From the NCBI GenBank assembly GCA_020402865.1, contig JADBYT010000021.1:7263-71262 (forward strand): 64,000 bases of DNA, read 5' to 3'. The notes under the pieces were generated by a model. The model made no database searches. It was given only the letters and a program-made list of their open reading frames with translations, and was not told the DNA's origin. The DNA comes from Bacteroidota bacterium (GTDB taxonomy: Bacteria > Bacteroidota > Bacteroidia > Palsa-965). Made by a program: the position numbers and the translations under genes. This document shows positions 4,523 through 50,394 of the stretch, one piece after another; the first letter of the stretch is position 1, and each line of letters opens with the position of its first letter.

Positions 4523-5428
4523 TCAGCCCTGCTGTATCCGCTGGTATTTTATACCGTTTCCGGGGTCAATTTTCTGAAGCAGCGGTACAATTTTGCCTTT
4601 CTCATCGGGCATGCCCTGCGTAAAGAGTTTCACTACTTCATCAGATTTTGCATTGAAGAAAATCTGCATCGGAAACGAAAGCGGGCGCTGTGCATGAATG
4701 GCTTCGAGACCTTGCAGGGCTTCGAGCACAGCGGCACGGCCAGCAGCCACATCGTTGTACATGATATCAAAGCCCAGGCGGTGATATTTGTAAATACAGC
4801 TGCGCATGGGCGCAAACAGCGGCTGCAGCATGTTTTCTACAAGCCAGTAGCGGTTTTTGGTGTCTTCCTGCGAACGCCAGCCGCGCTCGGGGGCGTTTTG
4901 CGCATTGGCTACAATGGTTTGCGCTTTTTGCCAGAATGGGGTGCCGCCGTTGAGTGAGAATGAATCGTAATCAAGTGCCAGAATTACATAAGCGTAATAC
5001 GCCAGCACCGAGGTAAGGTTGGTGGTGTGCTGGTTGATGGTGAAATCGAACGCCTGAAACTCGATGTATTTGAACTGAAAGTTTGGATCGTTGTGGTTGA
5101 GCATTACCGAATTGTACGACGATTTAAAGGCCGTGCGGGTTGACTGAATCTGCAACGTGGCTTTGTATTCGTCGTTCGAGAGTTTTTCGGTTACGTTTAT
5201 GAAGAAACTACAATTAATACGTTCATCGGGACCGAATACATCGTTTGTCCATTTCGTGTTATTAATAAACTCGAAAATGGCTTTCTGGAGGTTATCGAAA
5301 ATACGGCGTTCAGATGTGCCCTGAATCTGAGGCGACACCACCTGCACCTGGCAGTTGAGTTCCTGCGCCTGTGCGGCTGTGGCAGAAAAGCAGGCAATAA
5401 AAACAAGTAAGCGACTAAGCAGCTTCAT
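4523..5428 (-). CDS. DUF4835-family protein, the conserved partner downstream of coaBC in Bacteroidota.
   Basis: 301 aa, signal peptide MKLLSRLLVFIACFSATAAQAQ. It overlaps the coaBC stop by 1 nt and has the same position and orientation as DUF4835 genes in Bacteroidota (recalled from memory, not searched). Confidence 0.5.
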   Translation of the reverse strand: MKLLSRLLVFIACFSATAAQAQELNCQVQVVSPQIQGTSERRIFDNLQKAIFEFINNTKWTNDVFGPDERINCSFFINVTEKLSNDEYKATLQIQSTRTAFKSSYNSVMLNHNDPNFQFKYIEFQAFDFTINQHTTNLTSVLAYYAYVILALDYDSFSLNGGTPFWQKAQTIVANAQNAPERGWRSQEDTKNRYWLVENMLQPLFAPMRSCIYKYHRLGFDIMYNDVAAGRAAVLEALQGLEAIHAQRPLSFPMQIFFNAKSDEVVKLFTQGMPDEKGKIVPLLQKIDPGNGIKYQRIQQG

Positions 5429-12520: not shown

Positions 12521-14995
12521 ATGCGCCTTACGCTAACCGCATTAGTTCTGATTATTAACTATTTGTCGCTTTTTGGGGCGGCAGACACAACTGTTATTGT
12601 GCGTAAGGAGGCTTTTGCAGTGCGTACGGATGTGTCGCCCAAAATTGATGGCAAACTGGATGAAGCGATCTGGCAGAAAGCAGCGGTAATAAACGGATTC
12701 CAGCAAAACAGTCCAACTGAAGGGGCGCCGGTACATTTTGATACGGATGTGCGGATTTTGTACGACAATACAGCCATTTACATATCGGCGATGTTGTACG
12801 ACAACAGTCCCGACAGCATTATGCGTCAGCTGGGCATACGTGACACCTGGGTGAATGCCGACAATTTCAGGATGGTGTTTGACACCTACAACACCCAGCA
12901 GGATGCGTTTGACTTTTCGGTAACGGCTTCGGGCGTGCAAAACGACTCGCGTTTCTCAGATATGAATTATAATGCGGTGTGGGCCAGCGAGGTTCAGATT
13001 TTATCGAATGGCTGGAGTGTGGAAGTGGAAATTCCCTGGTCGGCATTGCGTTTCCCAACCGAAAACGGCCGTGAGTGGGGCGTGCAGTTTACACGCAATG
13101 TGCGCCGTTTTCAGGAATTTGATCAGTGGGCGCTTACTCCGAAAGCGGCGTCAAATGCGATGATGTATTGGGGAAAGCTCAAAGGGCTGGCTGATATTGA
13201 CGTGCCTCTGCGGTTACAGCTTACGCCCTACGCATCATTGATCTGGCAAAACGACGACCGTTTTGGCGAAACATCGCCCGTGCTGAATTACGCCGGCGGT
13301 ATGGATGTAAAATACGGCATCAACGAAAGCTTTACCCTCGATATGACACTGCTTCCTGATTTCAGTCAGGTACAAAGCGACAACGTAATTAAAAACCTCG
13401 GTGCTTTTGAGCAGCAGTTTCAGGAACAGCGTCCGTTTTTTACTGAGGGAGTAGATCTGTTTCAGCTGGGCGATTTATTTTATTCCCGGCGAATAGGTAA
13501 ACGGCCGTCGGGATTCTGGAGCGCGCCTTATGAGCTTGACAGTACAGAAGTATTGAAAAAGAATCCTACACAATCGCGGCTCATGAATGCCACCAAAATT
13601 TCAGGGCGCACCAATACGGGGTTAGGCATCGGTATTCTCAATGCATTTGTAGAAGACACTTATGCGGAAGCCCACGACACCATTACGGGCAACAAGCGCA
13701 AACTGCTTACAGAGCCTCGTTCAAATTATAACATTGTGGTTTTTCAGAAGCAAATGAAAAACAGTTCATCGGCTTATGTAATTAACACCAATGTAATACG
13801 CACACACGGCTGGAACAGTTCGAATGTAACGGGGGCCGGTACAGTGCTGAATGATAAAAAGCAAAACTGGCAACTCCGTTTTGACGGCGCGGTGAGTGAT
13901 ATTCTTTCGCCGGTTGACAGTGTAAAAGGAGAGTTTGATGCACGTATTGGTTATCAGTACAACCTGCAGCTGGCACGCACAAGCGGAAAAATTCAGTATT
14001 ACATTGCCCGCAACGTGAAAAGCCTCAATTTTGATGCAAACGACCTGGGCATTACGTTTGAAACCAATTTTGCCCAGCAGAATGCCGGTATCACCTACTT
14101 CATTTTCAACCCGTGGAAACGTATCAATCAGGGCAATTTCGGCTTTAATGCCGGATATCAGTACAACCTGATTACCAAAGAACGGAATGCTTTGTTTTTG
14201 AACATTAACTCCTGGTTGCAGTTCAGGAATTTCTCCAATATGTTTTTCGGCATGGAAGCCAATCCCTACGATCAGCGCGATTATTACGAGCCGCGCGAAC
14301 AGGGCCGGTTCTTCCTGCGCCGGCGAATGATGAACATGTGGGCTGGCTACAATACCAACTCAAACAAGAAAATAAGCGGTGGCGTAAATGTATATTGCGG
14401 CACAACGGATAAAGTGACTGAAACAATCCCCGCAAACCCCTGGATTGGCGGTGGTTTCTGGATGGACTGGCGGGTAAACGACCGGCTCACGCTTTCGGTT
14501 TTTCCCAGTGTACACAACGACATTGGCGACCGGGGCTGGGTAAACACAGAAAACAACGGTAACATTGTGTTTGGCCGCCGCATTTTACGCAATATCGAAA
14601 ACGGTCTTAGCGCAAGCTACGTGTTTAAGCGTGATATGTCGCTTACCATTAACGGCCGCCATTTCTGGGCCACCGGCCGCTATACCGGTTACTACACGCT
14701 TAACAATGAAGGTATTCTGGAAGATTATGCTTACTACACCGGAAATCACAACTTTAACTTCAACTCGTTCAATGTAGATATGGTTTTTCGCTGGATTTTC
14801 GCGCCGGGCAGCATACTGAGCGTGGGCTGGAAACAAAATATTCTTACAGATGAAGTTGGCATTCCGCAAATAAATTACAACTACACCTATAACCTGAAAA
14901 ATACGCTTCAGGCTCCGCAGCTGAACCAGTTCTCGGTGAGGGTGTTGTATTTTATTGATTACGTGTACTTGAAAAAGGCATTGCAACGCAAATAA
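12521..14995 (+). CDS. Large exported DUF5916 / carbohydrate-binding-family-9-like domain protein.
   Basis: 824 aa. N-terminal signal, then AFAVRTDVSPKIDGKLDEAIWQKAAVINGFQQNSPTEGAPV…ILYDNTAIYISAML, the characteristic CBM9-like opening of DUF5916 proteins. The long beta-rich C-terminal part is consistent with a barrel. Confidence 0.55.
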   Translation: MRLTLTALVLIINYLSLFGAADTTVIVRKEAFAVRTDVSPKIDGKLDEAIWQKAAVINGFQQNSPTEGAPVHFDTDVRILYDNTAIYISAMLYDNSPDSIMRQLGIRDTWVNADNFRMVFDTYNTQQDAFDFSVTASGVQNDSRFSDMNYNAVWASEVQILSNGWSVEVEIPWSALRFPTENGREWGVQFTRNVRRFQEFDQWALTPKAASNAMMYWGKLKGLADIDVPLRLQLTPYASLIWQNDDRFGETSPVLNYAGGMDVKYGINESFTLDMTLLPDFSQVQSDNVIKNLGAFEQQFQEQRPFFTEGVDLFQLGDLFYSRRIGKRPSGFWSAPYELDSTEVLKKNPTQSRLMNATKISGRTNTGLGIGILNAFVEDTYAEAHDTITGNKRKLLTEPRSNYNIVVFQKQMKNSSSAYVINTNVIRTHGWNSSNVTGAGTVLNDKKQNWQLRFDGAVSDILSPVDSVKGEFDARIGYQYNLQLARTSGKIQYYIARNVKSLNFDANDLGITFETNFAQQNAGITYFIFNPWKRINQGNFGFNAGYQYNLITKERNALFLNINSWLQFRNFSNMFFGMEANPYDQRDYYEPREQGRFFLRRRMMNMWAGYNTNSNKKISGGVNVYCGTTDKVTETIPANPWIGGGFWMDWRVNDRLTLSVFPSVHNDIGDRGWVNTENNGNIVFGRRILRNIENGLSASYVFKRDMSLTINGRHFWATGRYTGYYTLNNEGILEDYAYYTGNHNFNFNSFNVDMVFRWIFAPGSILSVGWKQNILTDEVGIPQINYNYTYNLKNTLQAPQLNQFSVRVLYFIDYVYLKKALQRK

Positions 14996-15137
14996 GTGTT
15001 GTTTTGCCTATTACCACATTTTCCCTTCCGGCTGCATGATAATTTCTGCCACTTACTTCTGCATCGTTGTAGTTTAGACAGGTCTGTGTATTTTTGACAG
15101 CATCCGGTGCTGCGAACCTGAATGCCGGATACGTTGC

Positions 15138-17846
15138 ATGAGACCACCCTTGCACTGCTTTTTTACTGTTTTGTGTCTGTCGTTCACTGTTTTTCTCCAC
15201 GCTCAGGGCGGGATATGGACATGGATGAAAGGCTCATCGGTAACCAATGCTGCCGGTAATTATGGTGTGCTGGGTGTTTCTTCCCCGGCCAATGACCCGC
15301 CTTCCATGTATGCTGCGTTGAGCTGGACTGATCCGGCGGGTAATTTCTGGCTTTACGGCGGGCTCAACAGCAGTTCCTTTCAGATTTACAGTGCGTTGTG
15401 GCGGTTTGATACGGGTAATTTGCAATGGACCTGGATGAATGGCAGCAGTGCTACGGGTCAATGGCCTGTTTACGGGACACAGGGCGTTTCGGCACCCGGT
15501 AATACACCGGGAGCACGTTTCAGGGGCTGCACCTGGATTGATGCCAATGGGAATCTCTGGCTCTTTGGCGGCTACGGGTTCGACTCGAACGGGCAACAGG
15601 GGCAAATGAGCGATTTGTGGATGTATAATGTGGCCATCAATGAATGGACATGGATGAAGGGGCCTACAATATCGGGGCAGCCGGGCAGCTATGGAACTTT
15701 GCAGGTGGCTTCGGGCGCCAACAACCCGCCCTGCCGGCATGAAGGCAATGCCGCCTGGGTATCAGCCAACGGCGAATTGTGGATGTTTGGCGGCGAGGGC
15801 GGCGGCGGTTTTTACAGCGATATGTGGCGCTATGACCCTGCTACCAACAACTGGACCTGGATGAGCGGGCCCAACACAACCAATGCATTTCCCAACTGGG
15901 GCGTGCTTCAGGTGCCCGCTGCAACCAATACGCCCGGCAGCCGCTCATCATACAACCACTGGACGGATGCGACAGGTAACTTCTGGCTTTTTGGAGGGAA
16001 CCGTTTTACCAACACCTATAACGATATGTGGCGCTACAATCCGGCCACCAATCAATGGACCTGGATGGGCGGCAGTAACTCGGCAAACGATCCGGGCAAT
16101 TACGGCACCTTTTGCACAGCCGGTGGTTTCAGGCCCTCGTCGCGGATGGAAACACGCACCTGCTGGAAAGACAATTGCGGCCGTTTCTGGCTTATGGGCG
16201 GCAGCACCAACAACCAGCTGAATCAGCTCGTGCAGGATATGTGGCTTTACGACCCGGTGCTGAATGAATTTCTGCTTTCGCGCGGGGGACCCGCCACCAA
16301 CCAGCCTGCCAGCTTTGGCGTAATGGGAGTGCCTGCGGCCACAAACGAACCGGCCGGCCTGGCAGGAAGCATGAGCTACACTGCACTGAACGGTGATATG
16401 TGGATGTTTGGCGGGTTGCTTAACGCCGCCGGCGGAACCAGCAATGCCCTCTGGCGCTTTCAACCCGATCTTTCCTGCTTCTCCGTACAGTTCAACCTCA
16501 CCGCATCCCCGTCAACCGGATGTTTCCCGCTGCCGGTAACCTTCCAGCTTTCGCCTGTGAGCAATAATTTCAACTTTCACTGGGACTTTGGCGATCCTGC
16601 CACGCAGGCCGATACAAGCAACCTGCCCGCTCCTTCGTATGTGTACACCAGCGCAGGCACATTTACCGTAACCGCAATTATCACAAACAACTCATGCGGC
16701 TTACTGGCTGATACCATTACCACCACAATACAGGTGAGCGCCGTTCCACTACCCGCGCTGGGGCCTGATACCATTCTTTGCGGAAATGCGTCGCTTACCC
16801 TTGATGCCGGTTATCCCGGCGCCTCATTCAGCTGGAACACCGGCCCGGCCGATACGCTGCAAACCCTTACCATAAACGCACCCGGCACCTATGGTGTGCT
16901 GGTATCGCTGGCCAACTGCTCGGGCAGCGACAGCATAAATGTAACCTACCTGCAACCACCAAACATCGGCAACGACACTACGCTTTGCGAAGGTCAGCCA
17001 CTCACGCTTTCGGCCGGAAACATCTGGGATACCTACCTGTGGAGCAACCAGACTACGGCCTCCACCGTGCAGCCGGATACTACCGGAATCTGGTGGGTAC
17101 AGGTGGCTGCCGGCCCATGCACGTTTACCGATTCGGCCAGCATTACCATACATCCCCTGCCCGTAGTTAATCTCGGCCCCGACACTACGCTTTGCCCTGA
17201 TGTGGTATATGTGCTGGATGCAGGCAACCCGAATGCCACTTTCAGCTGGAACACCGGCGCCAGCACACAACAGGTGGTGGCTTCGCAGCAGGGGGCATAT
17301 TCGGTTTCCGTAACCGAAAATAACTGCACCGTGAATGATCTTGTGCTTGTCAATTTCTATCCGCCACTCGACCTCGGGCCTGATCTAAACCTCTGTCTGG
17401 TGCCCGAACTCTCGCTTGATGCAGGACCGGCACTCAGCTATTTGTGGAACACCGGCGAAACCACACAAACAATCGTGGCCAACACTGCGGGTATGTATTC
17501 CGTATTGCTCGACAATGGCACCTGCCAGCTGCGCGACTCAATAGAAATTACCGGAGGCACCAGTTCGGGTATGCTTTATGTGCCCAATACGTTTACACCC
17601 AATGCAAACGGTACAAATGATTACTTCTTCGTGGCCGGCGACGGAATTACCCAGTTTACAATGCGCATTTACAACCGCTGGGGGCAACTGATTTTCATTT
17701 CCGGCAATATGAACGAGTACTGGGATGGTACATTGAATGGTGTGAAATGCCAGAATGATACGTATGTCTATATCATCGACTACCGTACAGAATGTGGCGG
17801 GGAAAACGATTTCAGAAAAATTGGGCATGTGAATTTATTGCGTTAA
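15138..17846 (+). CDS. Secreted Kelch-repeat beta-propeller / PKD / Ig-like repeat protein with a type-B T9SS (gliding-motility-associated) C-terminal domain. This is paralog 1.
   Basis: 902 aa with signal peptide, then about 7 repeats of the WTWMxG…G…W.FGG Kelch pattern, a PKD-like WDFGD…GTFTVT block, repeated LGPDTTLC…LDAG…WNTG…TQ modules, and a C-terminus YVPNTFTPNANGTNDYFF…RIYNRWGQLIF matching the TIGR04131-type CTD consensus (recalled). Confidence 0.8.
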   Translation: MRPPLHCFFTVLCLSFTVFLHAQGGIWTWMKGSSVTNAAGNYGVLGVSSPANDPPSMYAALSWTDPAGNFWLYGGLNSSSFQIYSALWRFDTGNLQWTWMNGSSATGQWPVYGTQGVSAPGNTPGARFRGCTWIDANGNLWLFGGYGFDSNGQQGQMSDLWMYNVAINEWTWMKGPTISGQPGSYGTLQVASGANNPPCRHEGNAAWVSANGELWMFGGEGGGGFYSDMWRYDPATNNWTWMSGPNTTNAFPNWGVLQVPAATNTPGSRSSYNHWTDATGNFWLFGGNRFTNTYNDMWRYNPATNQWTWMGGSNSANDPGNYGTFCTAGGFRPSSRMETRTCWKDNCGRFWLMGGSTNNQLNQLVQDMWLYDPVLNEFLLSRGGPATNQPASFGVMGVPAATNEPAGLAGSMSYTALNGDMWMFGGLLNAAGGTSNALWRFQPDLSCFSVQFNLTASPSTGCFPLPVTFQLSPVSNNFNFHWDFGDPATQADTSNLPAPSYVYTSAGTFTVTAIITNNSCGLLADTITTTIQVSAVPLPALGPDTILCGNASLTLDAGYPGASFSWNTGPADTLQTLTINAPGTYGVLVSLANCSGSDSINVTYLQPPNIGNDTTLCEGQPLTLSAGNIWDTYLWSNQTTASTVQPDTTGIWWVQVAAGPCTFTDSASITIHPLPVVNLGPDTTLCPDVVYVLDAGNPNATFSWNTGASTQQVVASQQGAYSVSVTENNCTVNDLVLVNFYPPLDLGPDLNLCLVPELSLDAGPALSYLWNTGETTQTIVANTAGMYSVLLDNGTCQLRDSIEITGGTSSGMLYVPNTFTPNANGTNDYFFVAGDGITQFTMRIYNRWGQLIFISGNMNEYWDGTLNGVKCQNDTYVYIIDYRTECGGENDFRKIGHVNLLR

Positions 17847-17922
17847 GCCTGTTTTTGACTGCATACATGCAAACACTTTGTGTACTTATATGTTATATTT
17901 CATGGTAAAACCAATTCTGATG

Positions 17923-18618
17923 ACAAAACTTTTTGCTTCGCTGGCAGCATTGCTGTTTGCCTCATTACTTGCCGCGCAAAGCCCGGTACGTTTTTATGAA
18001 AAAGGAAAAGTTGGCTATAAAAGTGCCGATGGTAAAATTATTGTTGCACCTTCCTATGACGCCGGTGGCGATTTCAGCGAAGGTTTTGCGATTGTGCTGA
18101 AAGGCTCAAAACGCGGATATATCAACGAATCGGGCGAACTGGTTATTCCGATGATTTATGAAGATGCCGGACAGTTTAAAAATGGCATTGCCCGTGTGAT
18201 GAAAGATAAATTGTATGGTTTTATTAATACAAAAGGAAGTATCGTTATTCCGTTCAGCTATGCCTTTGCCGACGATTTTTCTAACGGACTTGCCCGTGTG
18301 GCGGTAAACGGGAAATATGGCTTTATCAACAACACGAATCAGTTTGTGATTGCCGCTCAGTACAGCAACGCCAACAACTTTTCAGAAGGACTTGCCTCCG
18401 TGCAGAAAGACGGGAAATGGGGGTTTATTGATGTAAAGGGACTAACAGTAATTCCTTTTGAATATGATCAGGCCTATACCTTTGTTAAAGGCGAAGCCAA
18501 AGTGCGCAAAGGCGATAAATCATATTTTATTTCCCCTAAAAACAAATTTATACGCAAGGAAGAAAACCGCCACGAAGAAGAAGAACGTGAGCGCGAAAAA
18601 GCCAGAGGCAAAAAATAA
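17923..18618 (+). CDS. WG/KWG-repeat-containing exported protein.
   Basis: The ORF-track ORF starts at 17878. An internal Met gives the signal peptide MTKLFASLAALLFASLLAAQS. Tandem approx. 35-aa repeats each contain KYGFIN / KWGFID (WG repeat). Lys/Glu-rich C-terminus. Confidence 0.7.
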   Translation, partial: TKLFASLAALLFASLLAAQSPVRFYEKGKVGYKSADGKIIVAPSYDAGGDFSEGFAIVLKGSKRGYINESGELVIPMIYEDAGQFKNGIARVMKDKLYGFINTKGSIVIPFSYAFADDFSNGLARVAVNGKYGFINNTNQFVIAAQYSNANNFSEGLASVQKDGKWGFIDVKGLTVIPFEYDQAYTFVKGEAKVRKGDKSYFISPKNKFIRKEENRHEEEEREREKARGKK

Positions 18619-18685
18619 GCTGTTTGCCACATTGATCTTCCGGATTCTAAATTCAGATTGTCTGAATTCTTTCATCATTAGTCAT

Positions 18686-18730
18686 ACCGGATTATCAGCT
18701 AAAATTGATAATCCGGTTTTCTTTTTACAG
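18686..18730 (+). terminator. Rho-independent terminator after the WG-repeat gene.
   Basis: Perfect 12-bp stem ACCGGATTATCA / TGATAATCCGGT with an 8-nt loop, followed by TTTTCTTTTT. A second 8-bp hairpin AATTCAGA-ttgt-TCTGAATT lies just upstream (about 18650–18669). Confidence 0.7.
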
Positions 18731-18954
18731 CAATTTTTACAGGTTGTTTTCATTTGACATTGACACTGGTATTTCCTGCTTCAAACCACTTGATAAAGAT
18801 TAGCTGCCGGATAACAGAATTGCCCTGTTGCCGGCAAATGTTTTATTAACATTACTAACGGTTTTGTGGCATTAGCTGTATTTTGCTTCACACATTCCGC
18901 TCCGTTAAATTGCAGAAACAGGCACGTGCAACCAGCGTTTGGCTGCATGAATTG

Positions 18955-21768
18955 ATGAATAAAGGATGTATGCATAACGTGCACAGTTTATCTGAATTGC
19001 AACATTGTTTTTTATTCCGCGCCAAATGGCTGCTGATAACAGGCTTTATGCTGTTGCATCTTGCAGGTGTATCTCAAAACGGCACATGGACATGGATTTC
19101 GGGTGATACACTGAGTGCTTCACCGGGCGATTTCGGCGTGCAGGGTGTTCCTTCTCCGACCAATGTTCCGCCAGCGTTGTATGAAGCGGCAGAATGGACC
19201 GATTTAAACGGAAATTTCTGGATTTTTGGCGGCTCCAATATTTCTACCCAAAATGCGTATTCGGATCTCTGGAAATTTGATCCGGTTTCGCAACTCTGGA
19301 CATGGGTAAAAGGGTCGTCGATTCCGCTGATGCCGGGAACTTATGGTGTACAGGGAGTGCCCTCTCCGCAAAACAACCCGGGGTATCGCGAACGCGGCTG
19401 TGTAACCTGGGTGGATGCCGCCGGCGATTTATGGTTGTATGGCGGAAGCGGTCCCGATATAAATGGATTCGACGGTACATCAGACGAGCTTTGGAGGTAT
19501 CAGATTTCAACCAATGAGTGGACATGGATGAAGGGTTCGGGTAACGCCAACCAGCTTGCCATTTTTGGCACATTGCAGGTTCCGGCTCCGACAAACAATC
19601 CACCCGGCATACACGAAACAGCCTGCGGCTGGACAGATGCCGCGGGCGATTTCTGGATGTATGGTGGCGAGGGAACGATCACTCCTAACGCTCATGATGC
19701 CATGTGGCGCTACAATATAGCTACCAATACCTGGACCTGGATGAGCGGGCAAACGATATCTCCGGTCATGCCTAATCATGGTGTACTTCAATCTCCATCG
19801 CCAAGTAATACGCCCGGATCGCGTCGGGTGTATGCACATTGGGAAGATTTGCAGGGAAAATTCTGGCTCTATGGTGGTGCCAGTTTTTTCGGACTTTGCG
19901 GTGATCTGTGGATGTATGATCCTACTACATTGGTTTGGACATGGATGGCCGGAACTCCGACAAATGCCAATTTCACAAACTTTACTACACAATGTACACC
20001 GGGCAATGAACACCCGCATGCGGTATATGAAAACCGTGCAAACTGGCGCGATGAATGCGGACGTTTGTGGTCAATGACCGGCGTTGCATCAGACAGTTCA
20101 CAGAACCCCAATAGCCCGCAATCAACCAGTACCAGCACGCTCTGGTGCTTCGATCCGCTTACTAATCAGTTTGTGTGGGTAAGTGGCCCCACGGCTGCCG
20201 GCGTGGCTGCCCATCATGGCACGCAGGGTGTGCCTTCTGTACTTAACCGCCCGCCGTCGCTCATGGGTACTGTTTCGTTTACCGGCGCCAACGGCGATTT
20301 CTGGCTCTGGGGCGGCGTTGAGTTGTATGGCGGTGCAGCAGTAAAAAACACCCTCTGGCGTTATCAGAAGGATCCCAACTGTCCGCGCTTCCCCCTGCTC
20401 GACTCCATTGCTGCAAATCCGGCCGTTTCGGGCTGTGCGCCATTCACCGCTCAATTATCAAGTGTGTACACTGCAAACGTGAGTTACTTCTGGGATTTTG
20501 GCGACAGCACAACACTTGCCGACACGGCTGTTACGGCATCTGCCTCGTACACGTTTCAGCAACCCGGTGTGTACACGGTTACACTGATCACTACAAGCCT
20601 GAACAGTTGTTATCTCGGCGCCGATACATCTTACCTTACCCTTACCGTACATCCTACACCGCAAATCAATCTGGGTAGCGATACCACAATTTGTTCACCA
20701 CCCGTAAACCTGCTGCTCGATGCAGGCAATGCCGGAGCCTCCTACGCATGGAGCACCGGAGCCACTTCACAAACCATACAGACAACTGCAGCCGGGATAT
20801 ACAGCGTAATAGCTTTCTCCGGCCCCAACAACGTGTGCAGCGACGAAGACTCAATTACAATTACACTTCCTGCACAACCCGACCTCGGCAGCGATACTGC
20901 AATTTGTGCCGGACAGTCGCTACTGCTTAATCCGGGCATTACAGGCAGCCAGTACAACTGGAGCACAGGCGATACAACAGCCACACTACTTGTAAATACA
21001 GCCGGTTTATACACTGTGCAAATCATCGCTCAGCCCTGCACACTCAGCAGCAGCATGACACTGAGTATTACACCGCTGCCTGTGGTAAATCTGGGCTCCG
21101 ACACAACACTCTGCCCCGGCGATACATTGCAGCTCAATGCACAAAATGCAGGAGCAACCTATGCATGGAACAACACAGCCACCTCGCAAACAATTGAAGT
21201 TACTGATGCAGGCAGCTATGCCGTGGTTGTAACTGCACAAAACTGCAGCGCCTCCGATTCGGTGCGCATCAATACCATGCAGGATGTGGACTTTGACCAA
21301 ACAGCCACACTTTGCGGCAGCAGCAATGCGCTGGTGCTTGATGCCGGAAATGCAGGCGCAAACTTTATCTGGAGCACCGGCGAAACATCGCAAACCATCA
21401 CCGTGCAACAAGCCGGCACTTACTGGGTCACAATTAACGCACCGCCCTGCATACTTACCGATACCGTGCAGGTAAACGGAATACTTGGCGAAGGACTTGT
21501 ATTTGTGCCAAACAGCTTTACACCCAATGCCGATGGCCTCAACGACCGCTTCACCGCATCGAGTGAAAACTTCACACAGTTTCATCTGATGATTTTTAAC
21601 CGCTGGGGCGAACTTATTTTCGAAACGTTTGACACGGCTGGCTGGGATGGTACATTTAAAAACGAAATTGCCAAAGGCGATGTGTATGTGTATAAACTAT
21701 CGTACTCGAATATCTGCACAGGCAATCAGGTTATCGGCAAGCTGGGGCATGTAACACTGGTGCGTTGA
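18955..21768 (+). CDS. Secreted Kelch / PKD / Ig-like repeat protein with a type-B T9SS CTD. This is paralog 2.
   Basis: The ORF-track ORF starts at 18883. The likely start is Met 18955 or 18970, before the hydrophobic WLLITGFMLLHLAGVSQ. Same architecture as 15138..17846. C-terminus FVPNSFTPNADGLNDRF…MIFNRWGELIF. Confidence 0.75.
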   Translation: MNKGCMHNVHSLSELQHCFLFRAKWLLITGFMLLHLAGVSQNGTWTWISGDTLSASPGDFGVQGVPSPTNVPPALYEAAEWTDLNGNFWIFGGSNISTQNAYSDLWKFDPVSQLWTWVKGSSIPLMPGTYGVQGVPSPQNNPGYRERGCVTWVDAAGDLWLYGGSGPDINGFDGTSDELWRYQISTNEWTWMKGSGNANQLAIFGTLQVPAPTNNPPGIHETACGWTDAAGDFWMYGGEGTITPNAHDAMWRYNIATNTWTWMSGQTISPVMPNHGVLQSPSPSNTPGSRRVYAHWEDLQGKFWLYGGASFFGLCGDLWMYDPTTLVWTWMAGTPTNANFTNFTTQCTPGNEHPHAVYENRANWRDECGRLWSMTGVASDSSQNPNSPQSTSTSTLWCFDPLTNQFVWVSGPTAAGVAAHHGTQGVPSVLNRPPSLMGTVSFTGANGDFWLWGGVELYGGAAVKNTLWRYQKDPNCPRFPLLDSIAANPAVSGCAPFTAQLSSVYTANVSYFWDFGDSTTLADTAVTASASYTFQQPGVYTVTLITTSLNSCYLGADTSYLTLTVHPTPQINLGSDTTICSPPVNLLLDAGNAGASYAWSTGATSQTIQTTAAGIYSVIAFSGPNNVCSDEDSITITLPAQPDLGSDTAICAGQSLLLNPGITGSQYNWSTGDTTATLLVNTAGLYTVQIIAQPCTLSSSMTLSITPLPVVNLGSDTTLCPGDTLQLNAQNAGATYAWNNTATSQTIEVTDAGSYAVVVTAQNCSASDSVRINTMQDVDFDQTATLCGSSNALVLDAGNAGANFIWSTGETSQTITVQQAGTYWVTINAPPCILTDTVQVNGILGEGLVFVPNSFTPNADGLNDRFTASSENFTQFHLMIFNRWGELIFETFDTAGWDGTFKNEIAKGDVYVYKLSYSNICTGNQVIGKLGHVTLVR

Positions 21769-21882
21769 ACGGCACATCGTGTTAAGTCTGCAGTTTTCCG
21801 GCATTTAACATTAATACGTACCTGCATTTTGAACTCTTTTACATAACTGGTGTTTACTTGTTGAACCCAATTTAACATTCAA

Positions 21883-24585
21883 ATGCCCCGTAGCCTCTTT
21901 GTATTTTGCACACTTCTCATTACATGCACTGTTTCTGCACAAAACGGCGTGTGGACATGGATCGGAGGCGGTAATTTACCCAATCAGGCACCGGTATTCG
22001 GCACTCAAACTATACCTGCGGCAGGCAACAGGCCTCCGCCGGTTTACGGCGCAGCTTCGTGGACTGATCTGAACGGTGATTTCTGGGTGTTTGGCGGTTT
22101 GGATAATTCGGCAGTAACGTCTTACTGGGGTAATCTCTGGAAATTCGATCAGGCACTGGGACAATGGGCGTGGATGAAAGGGCCGAATGTGTCAGATAAT
22201 TCTGGCGTATATGGTACTCTTGGTGTTCCTTCACCGCTGAACCAACCGGGGGCGCGTGCATTCGGGGCATCAACCTGGACAGACAATGCGGGCAATCTTT
22301 GGTTATTTGGCGGGTTTGGCATTGATGCTACCGGCCTGCAGGGTGAAATGAACGATTTCTGGAAATTTGATATTACTACCAATGAATGGACATGGATGGG
22401 TGGCAGTCAGAATATTTACGGTGCCGGGAGCTTTGGTACGTTGCAGGTTCCATCGCCCGCAAATATGCCTTCGTACCGGTCAGAAACCTTAGCCAACTGG
22501 AAAGATGGTGCCGGTAATCTCTGGCTGTTTGGCGGCACCTACTATGATGATATGTGGCGTTTTGATCCGCTTACCAACACCTGGACCTGGATGGCAGGCA
22601 GCAATGTAACAGGTGCGCTTGTTGTGCATGGCACACTTGGCGTTTCGTCGCCCGCCAACACACCGGGGCAACGCTGGGCATACGCCCACTGGACCGATCA
22701 GCAGGGGAAATTCTGGCTTTATGGCGGATTGCTTAACAGCACTACGCTCATGGGTGATATGTGGAAGTTTGATCCGGTAACGCTTGAATGGACGTGGATG
22801 GCGGGCAGCAATTTGCCTAACGATTCAACTACTTTTACTCAGCAATGCACCCCGGGCGGTTACCCCGATGCCACTTATGAAGGTCGTTCGTTCTGGACTG
22901 ATGCTTGCGGAAGATTCTGGAATGCACACGGAGGAAGTATTTTTGAAGCAGAAAACCACATCTGGATGTTTGATCCGGTGACCAATCAGTTTTCGTGGAT
23001 AAGCGGTGCGCTTAGTCCGGCCACACCCGCAAATTTTGGAACACAAAATGTACCTTCGCCCGCTAATTATCCGCTTGCCTTGGTGGGGACAGCGTCTTTT
23101 AACGATTTGAGCGGCAATCTTTGTTTGTATGGCGGCATGGATGCGAATACAGGATTTAGCTACAACACCATCTGGCGCTATCAGATTGACCCGGTTTGTC
23201 CGGGAACCAATGTTACGGCGCAGTTTAACGTTTCACCCGGACTTTCAGGTTGTGCCCCGTTTACCACCCAATTTACACCGGCAGTAAATTTGTATTCCGC
23301 ATACACCTGGAATTTCGGCGATACAGCCACCACAGCCGATACAAGTAGCCTGATTTCTCCGGTGTGGACCTACACACAGCCGGGCACATATACGGTAACG
23401 CTGATTACTTCGGGCCTTTCGGCCTGTGGTGGAGGCAGCGATACGGTTTCTGCCACAGTTACCGTATATCCGCAGCCCCAGCCAAACCTCGGCAGCGATA
23501 CCACCATTTGCATTGGCCCCGTTAACCTGCTGCTCGATGCCGGAAATTCCGGCAATAGCTACCTCTGGAATACCGGCGCTACCACACAAACGCTGGCCGT
23601 GAATGCGCCCGGCATCTATTCCGTTACTGTTTCTGCAGGCCCGAACGGACTTTGCAGTGTGCAGGACACCATCGTAATCACCCAACCCGCGCAGCCCGAC
23701 CTCGGCGGCGATACCACCCTTTGCGCCAACCAATCGCTCCTGCTCGATCCGGGTGTTACCGGTACACAATACAACTGGAGCACCGGCGCCACAACGCCTA
23801 CAATTACGGTTAATACTGCCGGCTTGTACAGCGTGCAAATCATCAACCCGCCCTGCACGCTCAGCAGCAGCATGAACCTGAACATAACACCGCTGCCGAT
23901 AGTGAACCTCGGCGCCGACACCACACTTTGTCCCGGCGACAGCATTCTGCTCAACGCACAAAATCCGGGCGCTATGTTTTTATGGAGCAATGCGGCCAAC
24001 ACACAAAGTATCACCACCGCCACAGCAGGAAACTACGCCGTAACCGTTACCGCACAAAACTGCAGCAACAGCGATACAATAAACATAAACACCAGCGCAG
24101 CACTTACTTTTGATGAAACCATATCGCTCTGCGGCAGTTTCAATGCGCTCATACTGGATGCCGGTAATCCCGGAGCCGGCTTCCTCTGGAATACAGGCGA
24201 AAACACACAAACCATCAGCATTGAACAGCCCGGCACCTACTGGGTTACGGTAAATGCTCCGCCCTGTGTACTTACTGATACCATTGAAATAATTGGAAAT
24301 ATTGGCGAAGCTGCAGTGTACATCCCCAACAGCTTCTCGCCAAACGGCGATGGTCTCAACGATAACTTCAGCGGCTACGGCGAGAGTTTTACTTCCTTCC
24401 GCCTCCTCATCTTCAACCGCTGGGGCGAACTCATTTTTGAAACCACCGATCCGGCCGGCTGGGACGGAAATTTCAACGGCACAAAAGTTACCGACGATGT
24501 GTATGTGTACAAACTCAGCTACACCAGCGCCTGCACAGGTGGTAAATTTGTGGACAGGCTGGGGCATGTAATGTTATTAAGGTAA
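21883..24585 (+). CDS. Secreted Kelch / PKD / Ig-like repeat protein with a type-B T9SS CTD. This is paralog 3.
   Basis: 900 aa, signal MPRSLFVFCTLLITCTVSAQ, Kelch WTWMxG repeats, WNFGD PKD-like block, Ig-like modules nearly identical to paralog 2, and CTD YIPNSFSPNGDGLNDNF…LIFNRWGELIF. Confidence 0.8.
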   Translation: MPRSLFVFCTLLITCTVSAQNGVWTWIGGGNLPNQAPVFGTQTIPAAGNRPPPVYGAASWTDLNGDFWVFGGLDNSAVTSYWGNLWKFDQALGQWAWMKGPNVSDNSGVYGTLGVPSPLNQPGARAFGASTWTDNAGNLWLFGGFGIDATGLQGEMNDFWKFDITTNEWTWMGGSQNIYGAGSFGTLQVPSPANMPSYRSETLANWKDGAGNLWLFGGTYYDDMWRFDPLTNTWTWMAGSNVTGALVVHGTLGVSSPANTPGQRWAYAHWTDQQGKFWLYGGLLNSTTLMGDMWKFDPVTLEWTWMAGSNLPNDSTTFTQQCTPGGYPDATYEGRSFWTDACGRFWNAHGGSIFEAENHIWMFDPVTNQFSWISGALSPATPANFGTQNVPSPANYPLALVGTASFNDLSGNLCLYGGMDANTGFSYNTIWRYQIDPVCPGTNVTAQFNVSPGLSGCAPFTTQFTPAVNLYSAYTWNFGDTATTADTSSLISPVWTYTQPGTYTVTLITSGLSACGGGSDTVSATVTVYPQPQPNLGSDTTICIGPVNLLLDAGNSGNSYLWNTGATTQTLAVNAPGIYSVTVSAGPNGLCSVQDTIVITQPAQPDLGGDTTLCANQSLLLDPGVTGTQYNWSTGATTPTITVNTAGLYSVQIINPPCTLSSSMNLNITPLPIVNLGADTTLCPGDSILLNAQNPGAMFLWSNAANTQSITTATAGNYAVTVTAQNCSNSDTININTSAALTFDETISLCGSFNALILDAGNPGAGFLWNTGENTQTISIEQPGTYWVTVNAPPCVLTDTIEIIGNIGEAAVYIPNSFSPNGDGLNDNFSGYGESFTSFRLLIFNRWGELIFETTDPAGWDGNFNGTKVTDDVYVYKLSYTSACTGGKFVDRLGHVMLLR

Positions 24586-24600
24586 GCAATTAGTTGCATA

Positions 24601-25830
24601 CTATTGTACTTCGCTCACCGGCTGTGCAACAGGCACCGGCCAATCGTCACTAAGCCCGATGCCTTTCCACATGCGTGCTATTTCGGCTTCGTTTGCAAGG
24701 CATTGTTCAAGATCGGCGCGTATTTTTTGCTCGTCCATTTGCTGGCCAATAAATACAAGCTCATTTATTCTGTCGCCAAAATTTGTATCCCAGCGGCTTT
24801 CAATCTGCTCTTTATTATTTACAAATGAAGCAAAGCCGATACGTTCACCGAAAGGCATACTCGCCCACCACACGCCCGCACTGTCGGCCCGCAGCGAGCC
24901 TCCGGCCTGGCTCCACGACATTGCCTGCTGCGGACGAGAAGCCAGCCAGAACAAACCTTTGCTGCGCACTATATTGTCGGGAAATTGAGCATTCACATAA
25001 TTCCAGAACCGGTCGGGATGAAACGGCCGGCGTTCCCGATACACAAAGGAACCGATACCGTATTCATCCGTCTCCGGGGTATGATGGTCTTTTTTCAATT
25101 CTTCAATCCAGCCCGCCTGCTTTTCCGCTTCTTCATAATTAAACAAACCTGTATTAATTATTGAACCCAATGGCACTTTCCCAAATTCCGACCGTATAAA
25201 ACGCGCACCGGCATTGAGTTTGCGCAACATTCGCTCAAGCAGATCAACCGATTCTTTCTCTATCAAATCGGTTTTATTCAGCACAATCACATTCGCAAAC
25301 TCAATCTGATCGGTCAGCAAATTCACAATGGTGCGGTAATCGCCATCCATATCGGTAAGTGCACGGTCGGCCAGCGTTTCCGCACTTCCGAAATCGCGGA
25401 AAAAATTATAACAGTCAACCACGGTTACCATGCAATCAATGTAACTGAAGCGGCTCAGATCAATATTCTTTTCCTCGTCGGCAAATGAAAAAGTCTGAGC
25501 CACAGGCACGGGTTCCGAAATACCCGTACTTTCAATAAGCAGATAATCAAACCTGTTTTCTCTGGCCAGCTTTTCCACTTCAGTCATAAGGTCTTCACGC
25601 AGTGTGCAGCAAATACATCCGTTGCTCATTTCCACCAGTTTTTCTTCCGTGCGCGATAAACTGGTTTCCCGCTCCACAAGCTGCGCATCAATATTCACCT
25701 CGCTCATATCATTCACAATCACAGCCACCTTTAAACCTTCTCGGTTATTTAGCACATAATTGAGTAAGGTTGTTTTCCCGGCTCCCAAAAAGCCGCTGAG
25801 CACTGTTACCGGAAGTTTTGTTTGTATCAT
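24601..25830 (-). CDS. COG0523-family G3E GTPase (zinc metallochaperone ZigA/YeiR/CobW-like).
   Basis: Walker [10 protein letters not shown], metal-binding GCICC motif, and a C-terminal CobW_C-like domain. The ORF-track start at 25899 is an upstream in-frame extension. The internal ATG at 25830 ([21 protein letters not shown]) is more plausible. Confidence 0.8.
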
Positions 25831-25912
25831 AAGCTCTTTTTTGTTTAAGAGATTCGATTGTAAGCGATTGTATGTATCAACAATCTTGTTAACTTGCATT
25901 AAACACCAAAAC

Positions 25913-25971: not shown

Positions 25972-26364
25972 ATGTTAAAAAAACGCGAAACATCGGGAAA
26001 ACGGCAGGTAATGCAAATTCTTGAGAACAGCCAAACGGCGTTAAGTCAGGATATGCTGGAAAAAAATCCTGCCCTGAACATAGATCGCGTTACCATTTAC
26101 CGCATTCTCCGGAGTTTTGAGGAAGACGGCAAGGTGCACCGGATTATGGGTAATGATGGGAAAGCCTATTATGCCTGTTGCCGCAATTGCAGCGAAAGCC
26201 ACGCCCATCATTTGCACTATCATTTACACTTCCAGTGTAATTCGTGCAATAAAGTAGAGTGTCTTCAAACGGAAATGACAATTCCTTTGCCTGAAAACTA
26301 TCAGGTAATTGATGCCAATATTGTACTTAGTGGTATTTGTGCCGGCTGTCGCTTAGCGGGCTGA
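25972..26364 (+). CDS. Fur-family transcriptional repressor (likely zinc-uptake regulator Zur).
   Basis: 130 aa. DNA-binding helix region RVTIYRILRSFEEDGKVHRI, and metal-site residues HHLHYHLHFQCNSCNK…CAGC (two Cys pairs and a His cluster), typical of Fur/Zur. Divergent from a COG0523 zinc-chaperone gene. Confidence 0.75.
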   Translation: MLKKRETSGKRQVMQILENSQTALSQDMLEKNPALNIDRVTIYRILRSFEEDGKVHRIMGNDGKAYYACCRNCSESHAHHLHYHLHFQCNSCNKVECLQTEMTIPLPENYQVIDANIVLSGICAGCRLAG

Positions 26365-34113: not shown

Positions 34114-34116
34114 AAA

Positions 34117-35115: not shown

Positions 35116-35185
35116 CAAAACACATTCATAATTTTTCCTCAGTTCCCACTATTTTAAATCCTTAGAACTATGGATTTATTAAAAT

Positions 35186-35818: not shown

Positions 35819-35828
35819 AAGCGTTGGT

Positions 35829-47676: not shown

Positions 47677-50394
47677 TTACCGTATCAGCACCACATGTCC
47701 GAGGCGTGTTTGCGGTGCATTGCCCGTGCAGGTACTCTTGTACGAAAGCCTGTACACATACACCTCATTTTGCGCCATATTAGTTGCGTATGCGCCATCC
47801 CAGCCTGCGGGATCAAACGTTTCAAAAATCAAATCGCCCCAGCGGTTGAAAATAAGCAGGTGATATTCAGTAAGCCCTTCCACTGTGCCGGTAAAGCGGT
47901 CGTTAAGGCCATCGCCATTGGGTGTAAAGCTGTTGGGCATAAACAGCATGGCCTCGCCCAAACTGCCGGTTACCAGAATACTGTCGCGCAGCGTACAGGG
48001 CCCCGTGTTTAGCGTAACTGAATAGTTGCCGGGGGTGGTTACTAATATGGTTTGTGTGGTATCTCCCGTATTCCAGAGGTGAGCCGCACCGGGATATCCG
48101 GCATCAAGTGTAATTCCGTTCAGTGTGCCGCATAGCGATGCATCCGGTCCGAGATTTACAGGCCTTGTTATGTTTACCTGTATGCTGTCGGCATCAGAGC
48201 AGTTTCCTGACACGGTTACGTTTACGGCGTAAAGGCCTGTACTGTCTGCAAGCAGTGTTTGGGTTACATCACCCGTGTTCCAGTTCCATGCGGCACCCGG
48301 GTTTTGTGCATCGAGCAAGAGTGTGGCTCCGGGACAAAGTACAGTATCATTTCCAAGATTTACAACCGGCAACGGAATTAAGGTAAGCTGCATGGTGCTG
48401 CTCAGTGAACAGGGTGGTACAATTACAGTTACCGTATAAAAACCACCGGTGTTTACAGTAATGCTTGCTGTGGTGTCACCGGTACTCCATATATAATGCT
48501 GGCCGGGAACACCGGCATTAAGTGTGGTGCTTTGTCCTGCGCAAATGCTGGTATCGCCAAGTGCGGGAGCCACCGGAAATGTAAGTTGCACGGTATCGGA
48601 AGCAATACAGTTTGCAACCGAAACCGTTACACTATATACACCATTGCTTCCCGGCGATATGGTTTGTGTGGTGGCTCCGGTGCTCCAACTGTAATTAAAC
48701 CCCGGATTGCCCGCATCGAGTAAATACGTTTGCTGCGGCGGACAAATTACCGTATCGCTGCCCAAATCAACCACCGGCTGAGGATGAACGGTTATAACCA
48801 CCTGATGCGTATCACGCCACACCTCGCAACGTGAAGAGTCGAATGCGACAAGTGTGGCTGTGTAAGTTCCCGGCTGAGCATAAACCCAGCCCACAGCCGC
48901 TGCCGACGAGGTATCGGCTAATGTTGCCTGATCGCCAAAGTCCCAGCTGAGGCGTCCGCTTAACCCGCAAAGGCCGGTTGATGAAAGCGCAAAGTGTACC
49001 GTATCTCCCAAACAAACAACGGTATCACAGCTAAACCCGGCACTGGGCGGACTTGGCGTAAAACGCCATAACTCGTCACTGGTATTTGAAAATCCACCAT
49101 AAACCCAGAAATTTCCATCGTAGTCAACCCAGCCTACCCCACCCATATGAACGCCGGGTAACACATTGGGGCCTGGCACCTGATAGGTACCATACACACG
49201 TTGTCCGGTAAAATCTTCGTGAAGCAATGTCCATTGATTGGTGGCTACGTTATAGCGGTATAGCGTTAAATGTGGCGACAAAGGCCCCGGATTGCCGCCA
49301 AACGTATAAAACAAATCGCAATCAGGTTTATTCCCATTCAAGTGCCATTCCGAATCTCTCACCGGGTAATCAGTTGCCGAGGGTACACAAATACCACCGG
49401 ACAGCGGCGTGGGATATACTTGTTGCGCTCCCTGTATTCCCGAAACCCAAGTCCATTCGTTTGTCTGATAATTATACTTCCACATATCATAATACGCCCC
49501 GCCTACTGCGGCATATTCCCCATTACCATAGAGATAAAATTCATCTGCCGTTGATTGCCAGTTGATATATACATTTCTTGTTCCGGGTGTGTTGGCTGCT
49601 GAAGGAACATTCTGAGTACCATACACCGGAGCCACATAACCAACACCCGGATTTCCTTTCACCCATTTCCATTGATTCAATTGCGTATCGTAAGTCCAGA
49701 CTACATCAGACGCGCCTGAAACATTAACCCCTGCTCCACCAAAAAACCATAAGTTCCCGAGTGAATCGCCCCAACCACAATGGTGTTCGGTTAAAGACTG
49801 AGGCAATGTTGTGGGCGTAAACACATTTTGCGGCCCCGGATTACCGTTGGGCATACTTCCCAAACCCGGTCCGTTCATCCATGCCCACTGATAAATACTC
49901 ACGTCGAATTTCCATAAATTCTGACTGCCATTCCCTTCCAGAAGCCAGAAATTACCATCTTTATCAATAAACTCAGTACTTCCGAAATTTACCGGACAAG
50001 GATAATAGGCAGGTGAAAATACCCCTTGCGACACATACGTACCTGCATAAGGAAATACGCCCCACATAGGCCCGTTCATCCATACCCACATACCCAGCGA
50101 TATATCATACATCCACATGTCAGCAAAGGCACATACTCCGAATTGCGGATCCTGGCTTACACCTCCGTGAAGCCATAAGTTGCCCTGATGATCAGTCCAA
50201 CGTGCCGCCTGATAACGAGAGCCAGGTGTATTGGTTGGAGAAGGAAGCCCCATTACTCCATAACTGGCCATCGCATTTGAGGGTTGATTTCCCTTCATCC
50301 ATGTCCACTCTCCGCCCGACTGCGCAAAAACACTTCCGCATCCGATTGAGAGTATGCATAACAGCATACAAAAACTATATCGTATTCTATTCAT
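47677..50394 (-). CDS. Secreted Kelch / PKD / Ig-like repeat protein with a type-B T9SS CTD. This is paralog 4.
   Basis: ATG at 50394 (MNRIRYSFCMLLCILSIGCGSVFAQ). Same architecture as the + strand paralogs. C-terminus FMPNSFTPNGDGLNDRF…LIFNRWGDLIF. Confidence 0.8.
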   Translation of the reverse strand: MNRIRYSFCMLLCILSIGCGSVFAQSGGEWTWMKGNQPSNAMASYGVMGLPSPTNTPGSRYQAARWTDHQGNLWLHGGVSQDPQFGVCAFADMWMYDISLGMWVWMNGPMWGVFPYAGTYVSQGVFSPAYYPCPVNFGSTEFIDKDGNFWLLEGNGSQNLWKFDVSIYQWAWMNGPGLGSMPNGNPGPQNVFTPTTLPQSLTEHHCGWGDSLGNLWFFGGAGVNVSGASDVVWTYDTQLNQWKWVKGNPGVGYVAPVYGTQNVPSAANTPGTRNVYINWQSTADEFYLYGNGEYAAVGGAYYDMWKYNYQTNEWTWVSGIQGAQQVYPTPLSGGICVPSATDYPVRDSEWHLNGNKPDCDLFYTFGGNPGPLSPHLTLYRYNVATNQWTLLHEDFTGQRVYGTYQVPGPNVLPGVHMGGVGWVDYDGNFWVYGGFSNTSDELWRFTPSPPSAGFSCDTVVCLGDTVHFALSSTGLCGLSGRLSWDFGDQATLADTSSAAAVGWVYAQPGTYTATLVAFDSSRCEVWRDTHQVVITVHPQPVVDLGSDTVICPPQQTYLLDAGNPGFNYSWSTGATTQTISPGSNGVYSVTVSVANCIASDTVQLTFPVAPALGDTSICAGQSTTLNAGVPGQHYIWSTGDTTASITVNTGGFYTVTVIVPPCSLSSTMQLTLIPLPVVNLGNDTVLCPGATLLLDAQNPGAAWNWNTGDVTQTLLADSTGLYAVNVTVSGNCSDADSIQVNITRPVNLGPDASLCGTLNGITLDAGYPGAAHLWNTGDTTQTILVTTPGNYSVTLNTGPCTLRDSILVTGSLGEAMLFMPNSFTPNGDGLNDRFTGTVEGLTEYHLLIFNRWGDLIFETFDPAGWDGAYATNMAQNEVYVYRLSYKSTCTGNAPQTRLGHVVLIR

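Follow-up and report, generated by a model that had tools for sequence, protein, structure and literature searches.

A 64,000-nucleotide stretch of a metagenome-assembled Bacteroidota bacterium (GenBank assembly GCA_020402865.1, contig JADBYT010000021.1, positions 7,263 to 71,262 of the forward strand), referred to here as the window, carries five paralogous genes, A to E, that lie in two groups: A, B and C at locus 1 and D and E at locus 2 (Table 1). The open reading frame (ORF) listing bears out all five at the sites given by the first-pass annotation, which had been made from the letters alone. Their products of 900–937 amino acids (aa) share one architecture, in which a putative signal peptide is followed by a Kelch propeller, a PKD domain, four small immunoglobulin (Ig)-like modules with two cysteines each and a C-terminal domain (CTD) of the type B that directs cargo to the T9SS (type IX secretion system). 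The description of locus 1 (15138–24585) as a tandem array of three holds for the number of copies but not for an uninterrupted array, as a WG-repeat gene (17878–18618) separates A from B. The public records of A, C and E come from a 'Bacteroidetes/Bacteroidota bacterium' genome and bear the generic name 'gliding motility-associated C-terminal domain-containing protein'.

Table 1. Features of the two Kelch-gene loci and of the secretion route, in window coordinates unless a related contig is named
Feature	Coordinates	Strand	Remarks
T9SS component PorD (DUF4835)	4523..5428	-	sole core T9SS component seen within the window
CBM9 + DUF5916 protein	12521..14995	+	conserved left flank of the array site
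Paralog A	15138..17846	+	902 aa; MCA6364212.1; putative signal peptide, Kelch propeller, PKD, four modules (nt 16749-17549), type-B CTD
WG-repeat protein	17878..18618	+	PF14903 4e-57, five WG_beta_rep repeats; between A and B
Syntenic WG genes	L081 1188-1892; L083 7183-7881; L086 9291-9995		232-234 aa
Terminator-like hairpin	18686..18717	+	13-bp stem then T-run, just after the WG gene
Paralog B	18955..21768	+	A-like architecture; modules nt 20662-21474; ORF opens at TTG 18883
Paralog C	21883..24585	+	900 aa; 100% identical to P0001 / MCA6364215.1
C, putative signal peptide	aa 1-20
C, propeller	aa 21-440 (nt 21943-23202)
C, PKD domain	aa 447-531 (nt 23221-23475)
C, four modules	aa 533-803 (nt 23479-24291)
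C, type-B CTD	aa 812-900 (nt 24316-24582)
CobW/COG0523-type GTPase	24601..25899	-	conserved right flank; convergent with C
Paralog D	47677..50394	-	905 aa from ATG 50394; ORF opens at TTG 50472; modules nt 47971-48774
MAM/CARDB protein	50766..54278	-	1170 aa; type-A T9SS CTD; 40 bp downstream of E
Paralog E	54319..57024	-	901 aa; A-like architecture; modules nt 54613-55416; MCA6364238.1

Kelch, PKD and type-B T9SS CTD models exceed their curated cut-offs in all five proteins. In Pfam, Kelch_4 scores 25.8–90.8 bits against a cut-off of 21.6 and Kelch_3 27–72 bits against 22, with the lowest Kelch scores in D and E. PKD_4 reaches 33–51 bits (cut-off 27) and CHU_C (PF13585) 46.7–61 bits (cut-off 27). 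The NCBIfam model TIGR04131, 'T9SS type B sorting domain', scores 44.5–50.4 bits against 35 and extends up to the last residues of every copy. The three sequence motifs quoted in the first-pass annotation are present, and its assignments of a beta-propeller and a type-B CTD stand, since Kelch models as well as TIGR04131 and CHU_C pass in all five proteins. Inspection by eye finds a putative signal peptide in A, C, D and E, with a basic n-region, a hydrophobic core and an AQ just before the first propeller strand, and in B if translation starts within 18955–18997. The predicted cleavage region ends in A|Q throughout, except for VSQ in B. All five genes are very probably T9SS type-B cargo.

The fold was predicted by AlphaFold2 for C, from a 32-sequence family alignment, and for E, a member of the most divergent clade. 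The mean predicted local distance difference test score (pLDDT) is 83.7 for C, with the propeller at ~90, and 79.7 for E. Both models consist of beta structure throughout, with the parts in one order: six four-stranded blades, the PKD domain, four six-stranded sandwiches and the CTD. Blade 6 is completed by a short N-terminal strand that comes right after the predicted signal-peptide cleavage site. In a Foldseek search of the PDB, the best propeller matches are six-bladed Kelch domains, namely those of LZTR1 (template modelling score, TM, 0.78–0.80) and NS1-BP (IVNS1ABP; TM 0.72–0.79), together with KLHDC2/10 and KEAP1; the E model matches the NS1-BP Kelch domain at TM 0.72. The earlier figure of about seven blades thus gives way to six. 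A seven-bladed propeller of the galactose-oxidase kind was considered and rejected on the same grounds, both models having six blades and six-bladed Kelch domains being the best structural matches. In the eukaryotic proteins the propeller, likewise of six four-stranded blades (TM 0.7–0.8 to those of the window), is the ligand-recognition module. However, those proteins are cytosolic substrate adaptors with a sequence identity of only 11–17% to the heads of the window, which would be extracellular and which, unlike the eukaryotic domains, have long D–A loops bearing the motif G.YG..GV.SP.N.PG.R.

Dissection with a regular expression and alignment finds exactly four modules per protein, each of 62–71 aa with two invariant cysteines, so that the 'about five' Ig-like modules noted before are five if the PKD domain is counted as an Ig-like unit. 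No Pfam or NCBIfam model rises above threshold on these modules. PF19081 Ig_7 ('Ig-like domain CHU_C associated') matches 8 of the 20 single modules, at best with an E value of 0.0024. With an E-value limit of 0.001, a profile built from the 20 modules matches 88,468 of 1.84 billion cluster representatives, and with a limit of 1e-10 it matches 50,740; tandem copies number up to ~90 per protein. In four multi-copy relatives the repeats are recognised strongly as Ig_7 (1e-16 to 1e-64). Three of the four carry a type-A or type-B T9SS CTD, and such relatives usually have CHU_C as well.

The full-length family profile finds GhpA of Aureispira sp. CCB-QB1 (PDB 9flp and related) at E 1.6e-127, with 23 stretches that tile its Ig-like stem and a separate 44-bit match to its C-terminal sorting domain. 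The pattern DTxxCxG...YxW...GxYxVxV...C is common to the modules and the GhpA stem repeats. Consistently, the best stalk matches in the Foldseek search are segments of GhpA (E 1e-15 to 2e-21; 2e-21 with the E model). Because relatives score as Ig_7 and the modules align with GhpA, the modules belong to a known and very large family of repeats, and by sequence comparison they are best filed as short, divergent Ig_7-type domains with solved homologues. This homology to Ig_7 and GhpA stem repeats bears out their description as Ig-like. The idea that the two-cysteine module is an undescribed domain was rejected on the same evidence. In contrast to the full-length search, the profile of isolated modules gave nothing significant against PDB sequences, T4 Hoc at E 0.12 being the sole match, a methodological oddity given that the full-length profile reaches GhpA through the same region.

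Of the characterised proteins, GhpA is the nearest to the window proteins in stalk and CTD. A substrate of the T9SS that carries a Sec signal peptide, it is thought to be anchored by PorP/PorE homologues and has intramolecular disulfides in its stem repeats (bioRxiv 10.1101/2024.01.29.577165). By analogy, the two cysteines of each module probably form a disulfide. GhpA has 5,898 aa with 52 stem repeats and a hook module and assembles into heptamers with a 240-nm hook, and its gene is followed by those of the PorP and PorE homologues (bioRxiv 10.1101/2024.01.29.577165). In contrast, the proteins of the window have ~900 aa with one PKD domain and four shortened repeats (~67 aa, compared with 84 positions in the Ig_7 profile), bear a Kelch head instead of hooks and lack adjacent PorP/PorE genes, which sets them apart from GhpA-type hooks.

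The five copies are old paralogs. Their pairwise protein identity is 37–69% (B/C 55%, D/E 69%), and codon-aligned nucleotide identity is 46–66%. At third codon positions identity falls to 32–44%, which is near saturation, and exact nucleotide matches between copies of the window reach 20 nt at most. Low identity together with near-saturated third positions therefore rules out assembly duplicates, a possibility that the first-pass annotation had named as fatal to its own proposal, and exact matches of no more than 20 nt leave no trace of recent gene conversion among the window's own copies.

Both loci are syntenic hotspots, fixed sites in the chromosome at which the family evolves by birth and death. 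At locus 1, three genomes share the order CBM9/DUF5916 gene, first Kelch copy, WG gene, variable copies, cobW, Fur-like gene, SpoIID and LpxB. The window has three copies there (A, B, C). A close relative (L083/L084) also has three, with different content (A', C', X), its first copy being 92% identical to A and its flanks 94–96% to those of the window. GCA_025454955.1 (L081/L086) has seven, with a first copy 82% identical to A and flanks at 84–88%. A is therefore a conserved anchor, with one-to-one orthologs in both relatives (92% in L083, 82% in L086) and in first position every time. In a neighbour-joining tree, B has no ortholog in L083, its nearest relative being L81_7 at 61%, and X has none in the window. 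At locus 2 the copy number is two or one: the window has E, the MAM gene and D, and the syntenic contig L085 has E' and the MAM gene (at 12750–16256) alone, so that D is an extra copy. Here E is 88% and the MAM protein 72% identical, below the 93–98% of the flanking genes (DUF2400 93%, MgsA 98%, an HTH-like gene 93%). The pair of E and the MAM gene, a type-B and a type-A cargo gene in an apparent operon, is kept in L085. In the window the MAM protein matches PF20773 (1e-11), Por_Secre_tail (4e-9) and TIGR04183 (35 bits compared with 23).

Variation within the proteins is unevenly distributed. Among 32 family members, the mean entropy of the propeller is 2.36 in the B–C loops, 1.64 in the D–A loops and 1.05–1.61 in the strands, and indels are most frequent in the B–C loops, where they occupy 25 columns. 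The diversification that had been proposed for the family is thus borne out both by these peaks and by the change of copy number between relatives. In codon-aligned sliding windows, C and its ortholog C2 are 82–99% identical over most of the head (74% in one 30-codon window), but merely 60–72% across the PKD domain and module 1. Over residues 649–708, C is 96–99% identical at the nucleotide level to the non-orthologous X, with an exact run of 67 nt, and 73–78% identical to C2. C2 and X, which belong to one genome, share tracts of 94–97% and an exact run of 74 nt. In the seven-copy array, six pairs of downstream copies are linked by exact runs of 50–78 nt, all at residue 530 or beyond; copy 1 shares exact runs of no more than 23 nt with the others. 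The mosaic tracts and exact runs in the stalk and CTD therefore indicate segmental gene conversion in addition to birth and death. Conversion acts between neighbouring variable copies, and in these on the stalk and CTD alone; the heads keep their lineage identity. These patterns might reflect a cassette-type diversification of surface receptors, in which A and the WG gene form an anchor, variable copies are gained, lost and recombined, and heads diverge on interchangeable stalks and CTDs that use a shared shuttle. We offer this idea tentatively; if true, it would provide strain-specific binding repertoires for prey, partners, particles or phage evasion.

The window also bears on the secretion route. 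The PorD gene passes its equivalog model by a wide margin (NF052317 T9SS_PorD, 360 bits compared with a cut-off of 170; PF16119 2e-102), and two cargo genes with type-A CTDs lie at 39190–41196 and 50766–54278, so the organism has a T9SS. The first of these (minus strand) encodes a cargo protein of 668 aa with two PKD domains, of which the N-terminal ~500 aa have no family match. Pfam and NCBIfam searches find no PorP/SprF or PorE gene among the window ORFs of at least 250 aa or in five related loci. The paralogs are therefore classed as 'orphan' type-B substrates. In Flavobacterium johnsoniae, three orphan type-B substrates, namely Fjoh_1123, Fjoh_1720, Fjoh_4934, which resemble the window proteins in their TIGR04131 CTD and in the lack of a porP/sprF-like gene linked to their own, have the orphan shuttle Fjoh_1677 in common, and five CTD motifs, A to E, have been defined (PMC12618676). 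By analogy, several substrates plausibly depend on one shuttle in the organism of the window as well. Type-B cargo remains bound to PorP-like proteins at the cell surface, as SprB does to SprF (PMC9143113).

Taken together, the five proteins are most readily explained as T9SS type-B cargo that displays a Kelch head on an Ig-like stalk, is retained by its shuttle and binds ligands, a reading to which we give a probability of about 0.6. Each pre-protein would be exported by Sec and fold in the periplasm into the six-bladed propeller and five small beta-sandwich domains, the PKD domain and the four of Ig_7 type. The TIGR04131 CTD would then be recognised by an outer-membrane shuttle of the PorP/SprF type, and the orphan paralogs probably share one encoded elsewhere in the genome, just as Fjoh_1677 is shared in F. 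johnsoniae. After passage through the SprA/Sov translocon the protein would most likely be retained on the shuttle. The stalk would hold the propeller roughly 15–20 nm off the cell surface, an estimate scaled from the 240-nm GhpA hook with its 52 Ig-like stem repeats. The propeller would serve as the ligand-binding head. The paralogs differ most in the B–C loops, which lie on one side of the conserved scaffold, so their binding partners probably differ from copy to copy. The heads may act as adhesins or lectins; no carbohydrate-binding family matches the Kelch head.

Several points weigh against this reading. With no PorP/SprF gene adjacent, the shuttle step draws on analogy. The CTDs of B to E are 58–70% identical to one another, but that of A shares only 42–45% with them; one shuttle may therefore not serve all five proteins, and A may use a different one. 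Some type-B reporter fusions are released from the cell (PMC12618676), and a type-B CTD is therefore no guarantee of cell retention. As for the stalk, the four modules of C score 25.2 bits with Ig_7, below its gathering threshold of 27.3, and the module-only profile does not retrieve GhpA from the PDB sequences at E ≤ 1. The start of B is ambiguous, ATG 18955, ATG 18970 and TTG 18997 all being candidates. The 906 aa of the database entry for B (P0019, from the same 137,425-bp contig) would place the start at 19048, which is M56 of the ORF ('MLLHLAGVSQ...'). That start cuts the hydrophobic core of the signal peptide, with loss of most of the peptide; each of the other three restores a normal one. 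Finally, all sequences come from metagenome assemblies, so that in principle chimeric assembly could account for some of the mosaic tracts. The identity of C in the NCBI and Logan assemblies and of C2 on three contigs speaks against chimeras.

The propellers could instead be enzymes, for example a NanM-like sugar mutarotase or a galactose/glyoxal oxidase, that are secreted or displayed and act on environmental glycans. The label 'N-acetylneuraminic acid mutarotase' given by JGI to many propeller-only relatives points in this direction, as do the galactose oxidases among the Foldseek matches, in which a propeller precedes an Ig-like domain, and the CBM9/DUF5916 gene as a conserved upstream neighbour. 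However, the JGI name is a generic orthologous-group label, and galactose oxidase superposes poorly (TM 0.32–0.44, root-mean-square deviation 16–21 Å) on models that both have six blades and fit six-bladed Kelch domains best. No enzyme family passes in Pfam or NCBIfam, and the surface loops are the most variable part, a pattern of a recognition surface that is unlike a conserved active site. An enzymatic head is therefore unlikely.

A role as gliding adhesins in the strict sense of SprB, loaded on a moving track with the paralogs giving traction on different substrata, is suggested by the type-B CTD that SprB also has, by the public 'gliding motility-associated' name and by the binding of SprB to its PorP-like partner SprF (PMC9143113). 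SprB also resembles the window proteins in its repetitive Ig-like passenger and is anchored via this PorP-like protein (PMC9143113). However, the public name describes the CTD alone. The SprB repeat PF13573 matches one of the 20 modules at E 0.024, which was counted as not present, and the proteins of ~900 aa are about seven times smaller than SprB with its 6,497 aa (bioRxiv 10.1101/2024.01.29.577165). The window has no adjacent sprF-like gene and no gld genes were seen in it. The earlier label 'SprB-like' is thus imprecise, and gliding adhesins of this kind are quite improbable.

The homology of the stalk modules and CTD to GhpA, segments of which are the top structural matches, would also allow the five proteins to be miniature oligomeric appendages of the GhpA kind that catch prey or partner cells in an ixotrophy-like contact. 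However, they have five Ig-like domains where GhpA has 52 stem repeats in 5,898 aa, no hook module, and, among window ORFs of at least 250 aa, none of the PorP/PorE homologues that follow ghpA, which makes such appendages very improbable. That the five copies are assembly or binning artefacts, such as collapsed or duplicated repeats or strain-chimeric contigs, is hardly credible and already refuted as regards their paralogy: the source is metagenome-assembled and exact runs of up to 78 nt in related arrays could mislead short-read assemblers, but the copies of the window show 37–69% identity, saturated synonymous sites, no exact match above 20 nt and distinct flanks for each copy, independent assemblies contain a distinct ortholog for each of A, C and E, and C is identical in NCBI and Logan.

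The design of Kelch heads on Ig-like stalks has many relatives. At E ≤ 1e-10, C matches over 3,600 proteins in the databases, and dozens of them, from uncultured Bacteroidia and often several per contig, have the same Kelch/PKD/CHU_C architecture of ~900 aa. A scan of one genome per species, driven by the stalk and CTD patterns, gave 565 relatives, of which the best 80 were inspected. In 79 of these the match is limited to residues ~370–900 (mostly ~440–900), and they come from Flavobacteriales, Chitinophagaceae, Saprospiraceae, Marinifilaceae and others. Because of the patterns that drove it, the scan retrieved mostly other heads on the same stalk, not further Kelch-headed copies; examples bear DUF7948, SBBP propeller repeats or unannotated heads on a stalk ending in CHU_C. 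The stalk and CTD are therefore a widespread chassis, with Kelch as one of several heads. The T9SS is known from the phylum Bacteroidota. Stalk/CTD relatives also occur on contigs binned as Competibacteraceae, Thermoanaerobaculia and Chromatiales (L022, L038, L039, L052), which could be due to binning contamination or horizontal transfer.

Every domain of these proteins, the secretion route and the general plan, in which Ig-like domains that lead into a T9SS CTD carry a head, are already known. What is new is descriptive: a Kelch-headed family of orphan type-B cargo, its GhpA-stem homology and its hotspot and mosaic evolution. Literature searches on Kelch combined with type IX secretion or T9SS returned no relevant paper, just an unrelated Burkholderia review, and a search on Ig_7 / PF19081 returned nothing relevant. 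Much less work has been done on type-B T9SS substrates than on those of type A; cases studied experimentally include SprB, Fjoh_3952 and the three orphans of F. johnsoniae, PG1035 of P. gingivalis and GhpA of Aureispira. The present family is a compact orphan type-B model of ~900 aa with a well-predicted fold, useful for asking how one shuttle serves several cargoes and which ligands are bound by an extracellular Kelch head of bacteria. Changes in copy number and the mosaic stalks suggest that the cell surface of uncultured Bacteroidota varies from strain to strain, which is relevant to particle attachment, predation and phage–host interactions. The scope is modest, and current understanding is not overturned.

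Among the neighbours at locus 1, the WG gene directly follows the first Kelch copy and precedes the remaining copies in each of the three genomes. Its ORF opens at TTG 17878, and the likely start is ATG 17920, which gives 'MTKLFASLAALLFASLLAAQ'. The protein looks secreted and has a tail rich in lysine and glutamate. With identities of 91% and 73% in the relatives it changes faster than the flanks do, and it may be functionally linked to paralog A. The hairpin at 18686–18717 hints that A and the WG gene are transcribed together as a unit, apart from B and C. In total, terminator-like sites in the region are not above shuffled expectation, and neither is a sigma-70 promoter scan of the array, made with a tool that does not cover Bacteroidota promoters. 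On the left flank, L083, L084 and L086 also have the CBM9/DUF5916 gene upstream of their arrays, with 94% and 87% identity. On the right, 15 bases (24586–24600) separate the stop codons of C and the CobW gene, and a Zur-like regulator of the Fur family (130 aa, 25972–26364, plus strand) completes the conserved flank. The CobW and Zur-like pair looks like zinc homeostasis, with no evident link to the Kelch genes.

Elsewhere in the window, 33175–35914 (minus strand) holds a full-length TIR-STING effector of CBASS type (PF10137 4e-28, PF20300 5e-10, PADLOC PDLC00729 1.5e-71). It adjoins a caspase-like Peptidase_C14 gene (34117–35118) and an ORF of 242 aa with a weak CARF-like match (35186–35914). 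No CD-NTase was seen among the ORFs neighbouring the TIR-STING gene. This cluster of TIR-STING, Peptidase_C14 and CARF-like genes could be an unusual arrangement of defence genes.

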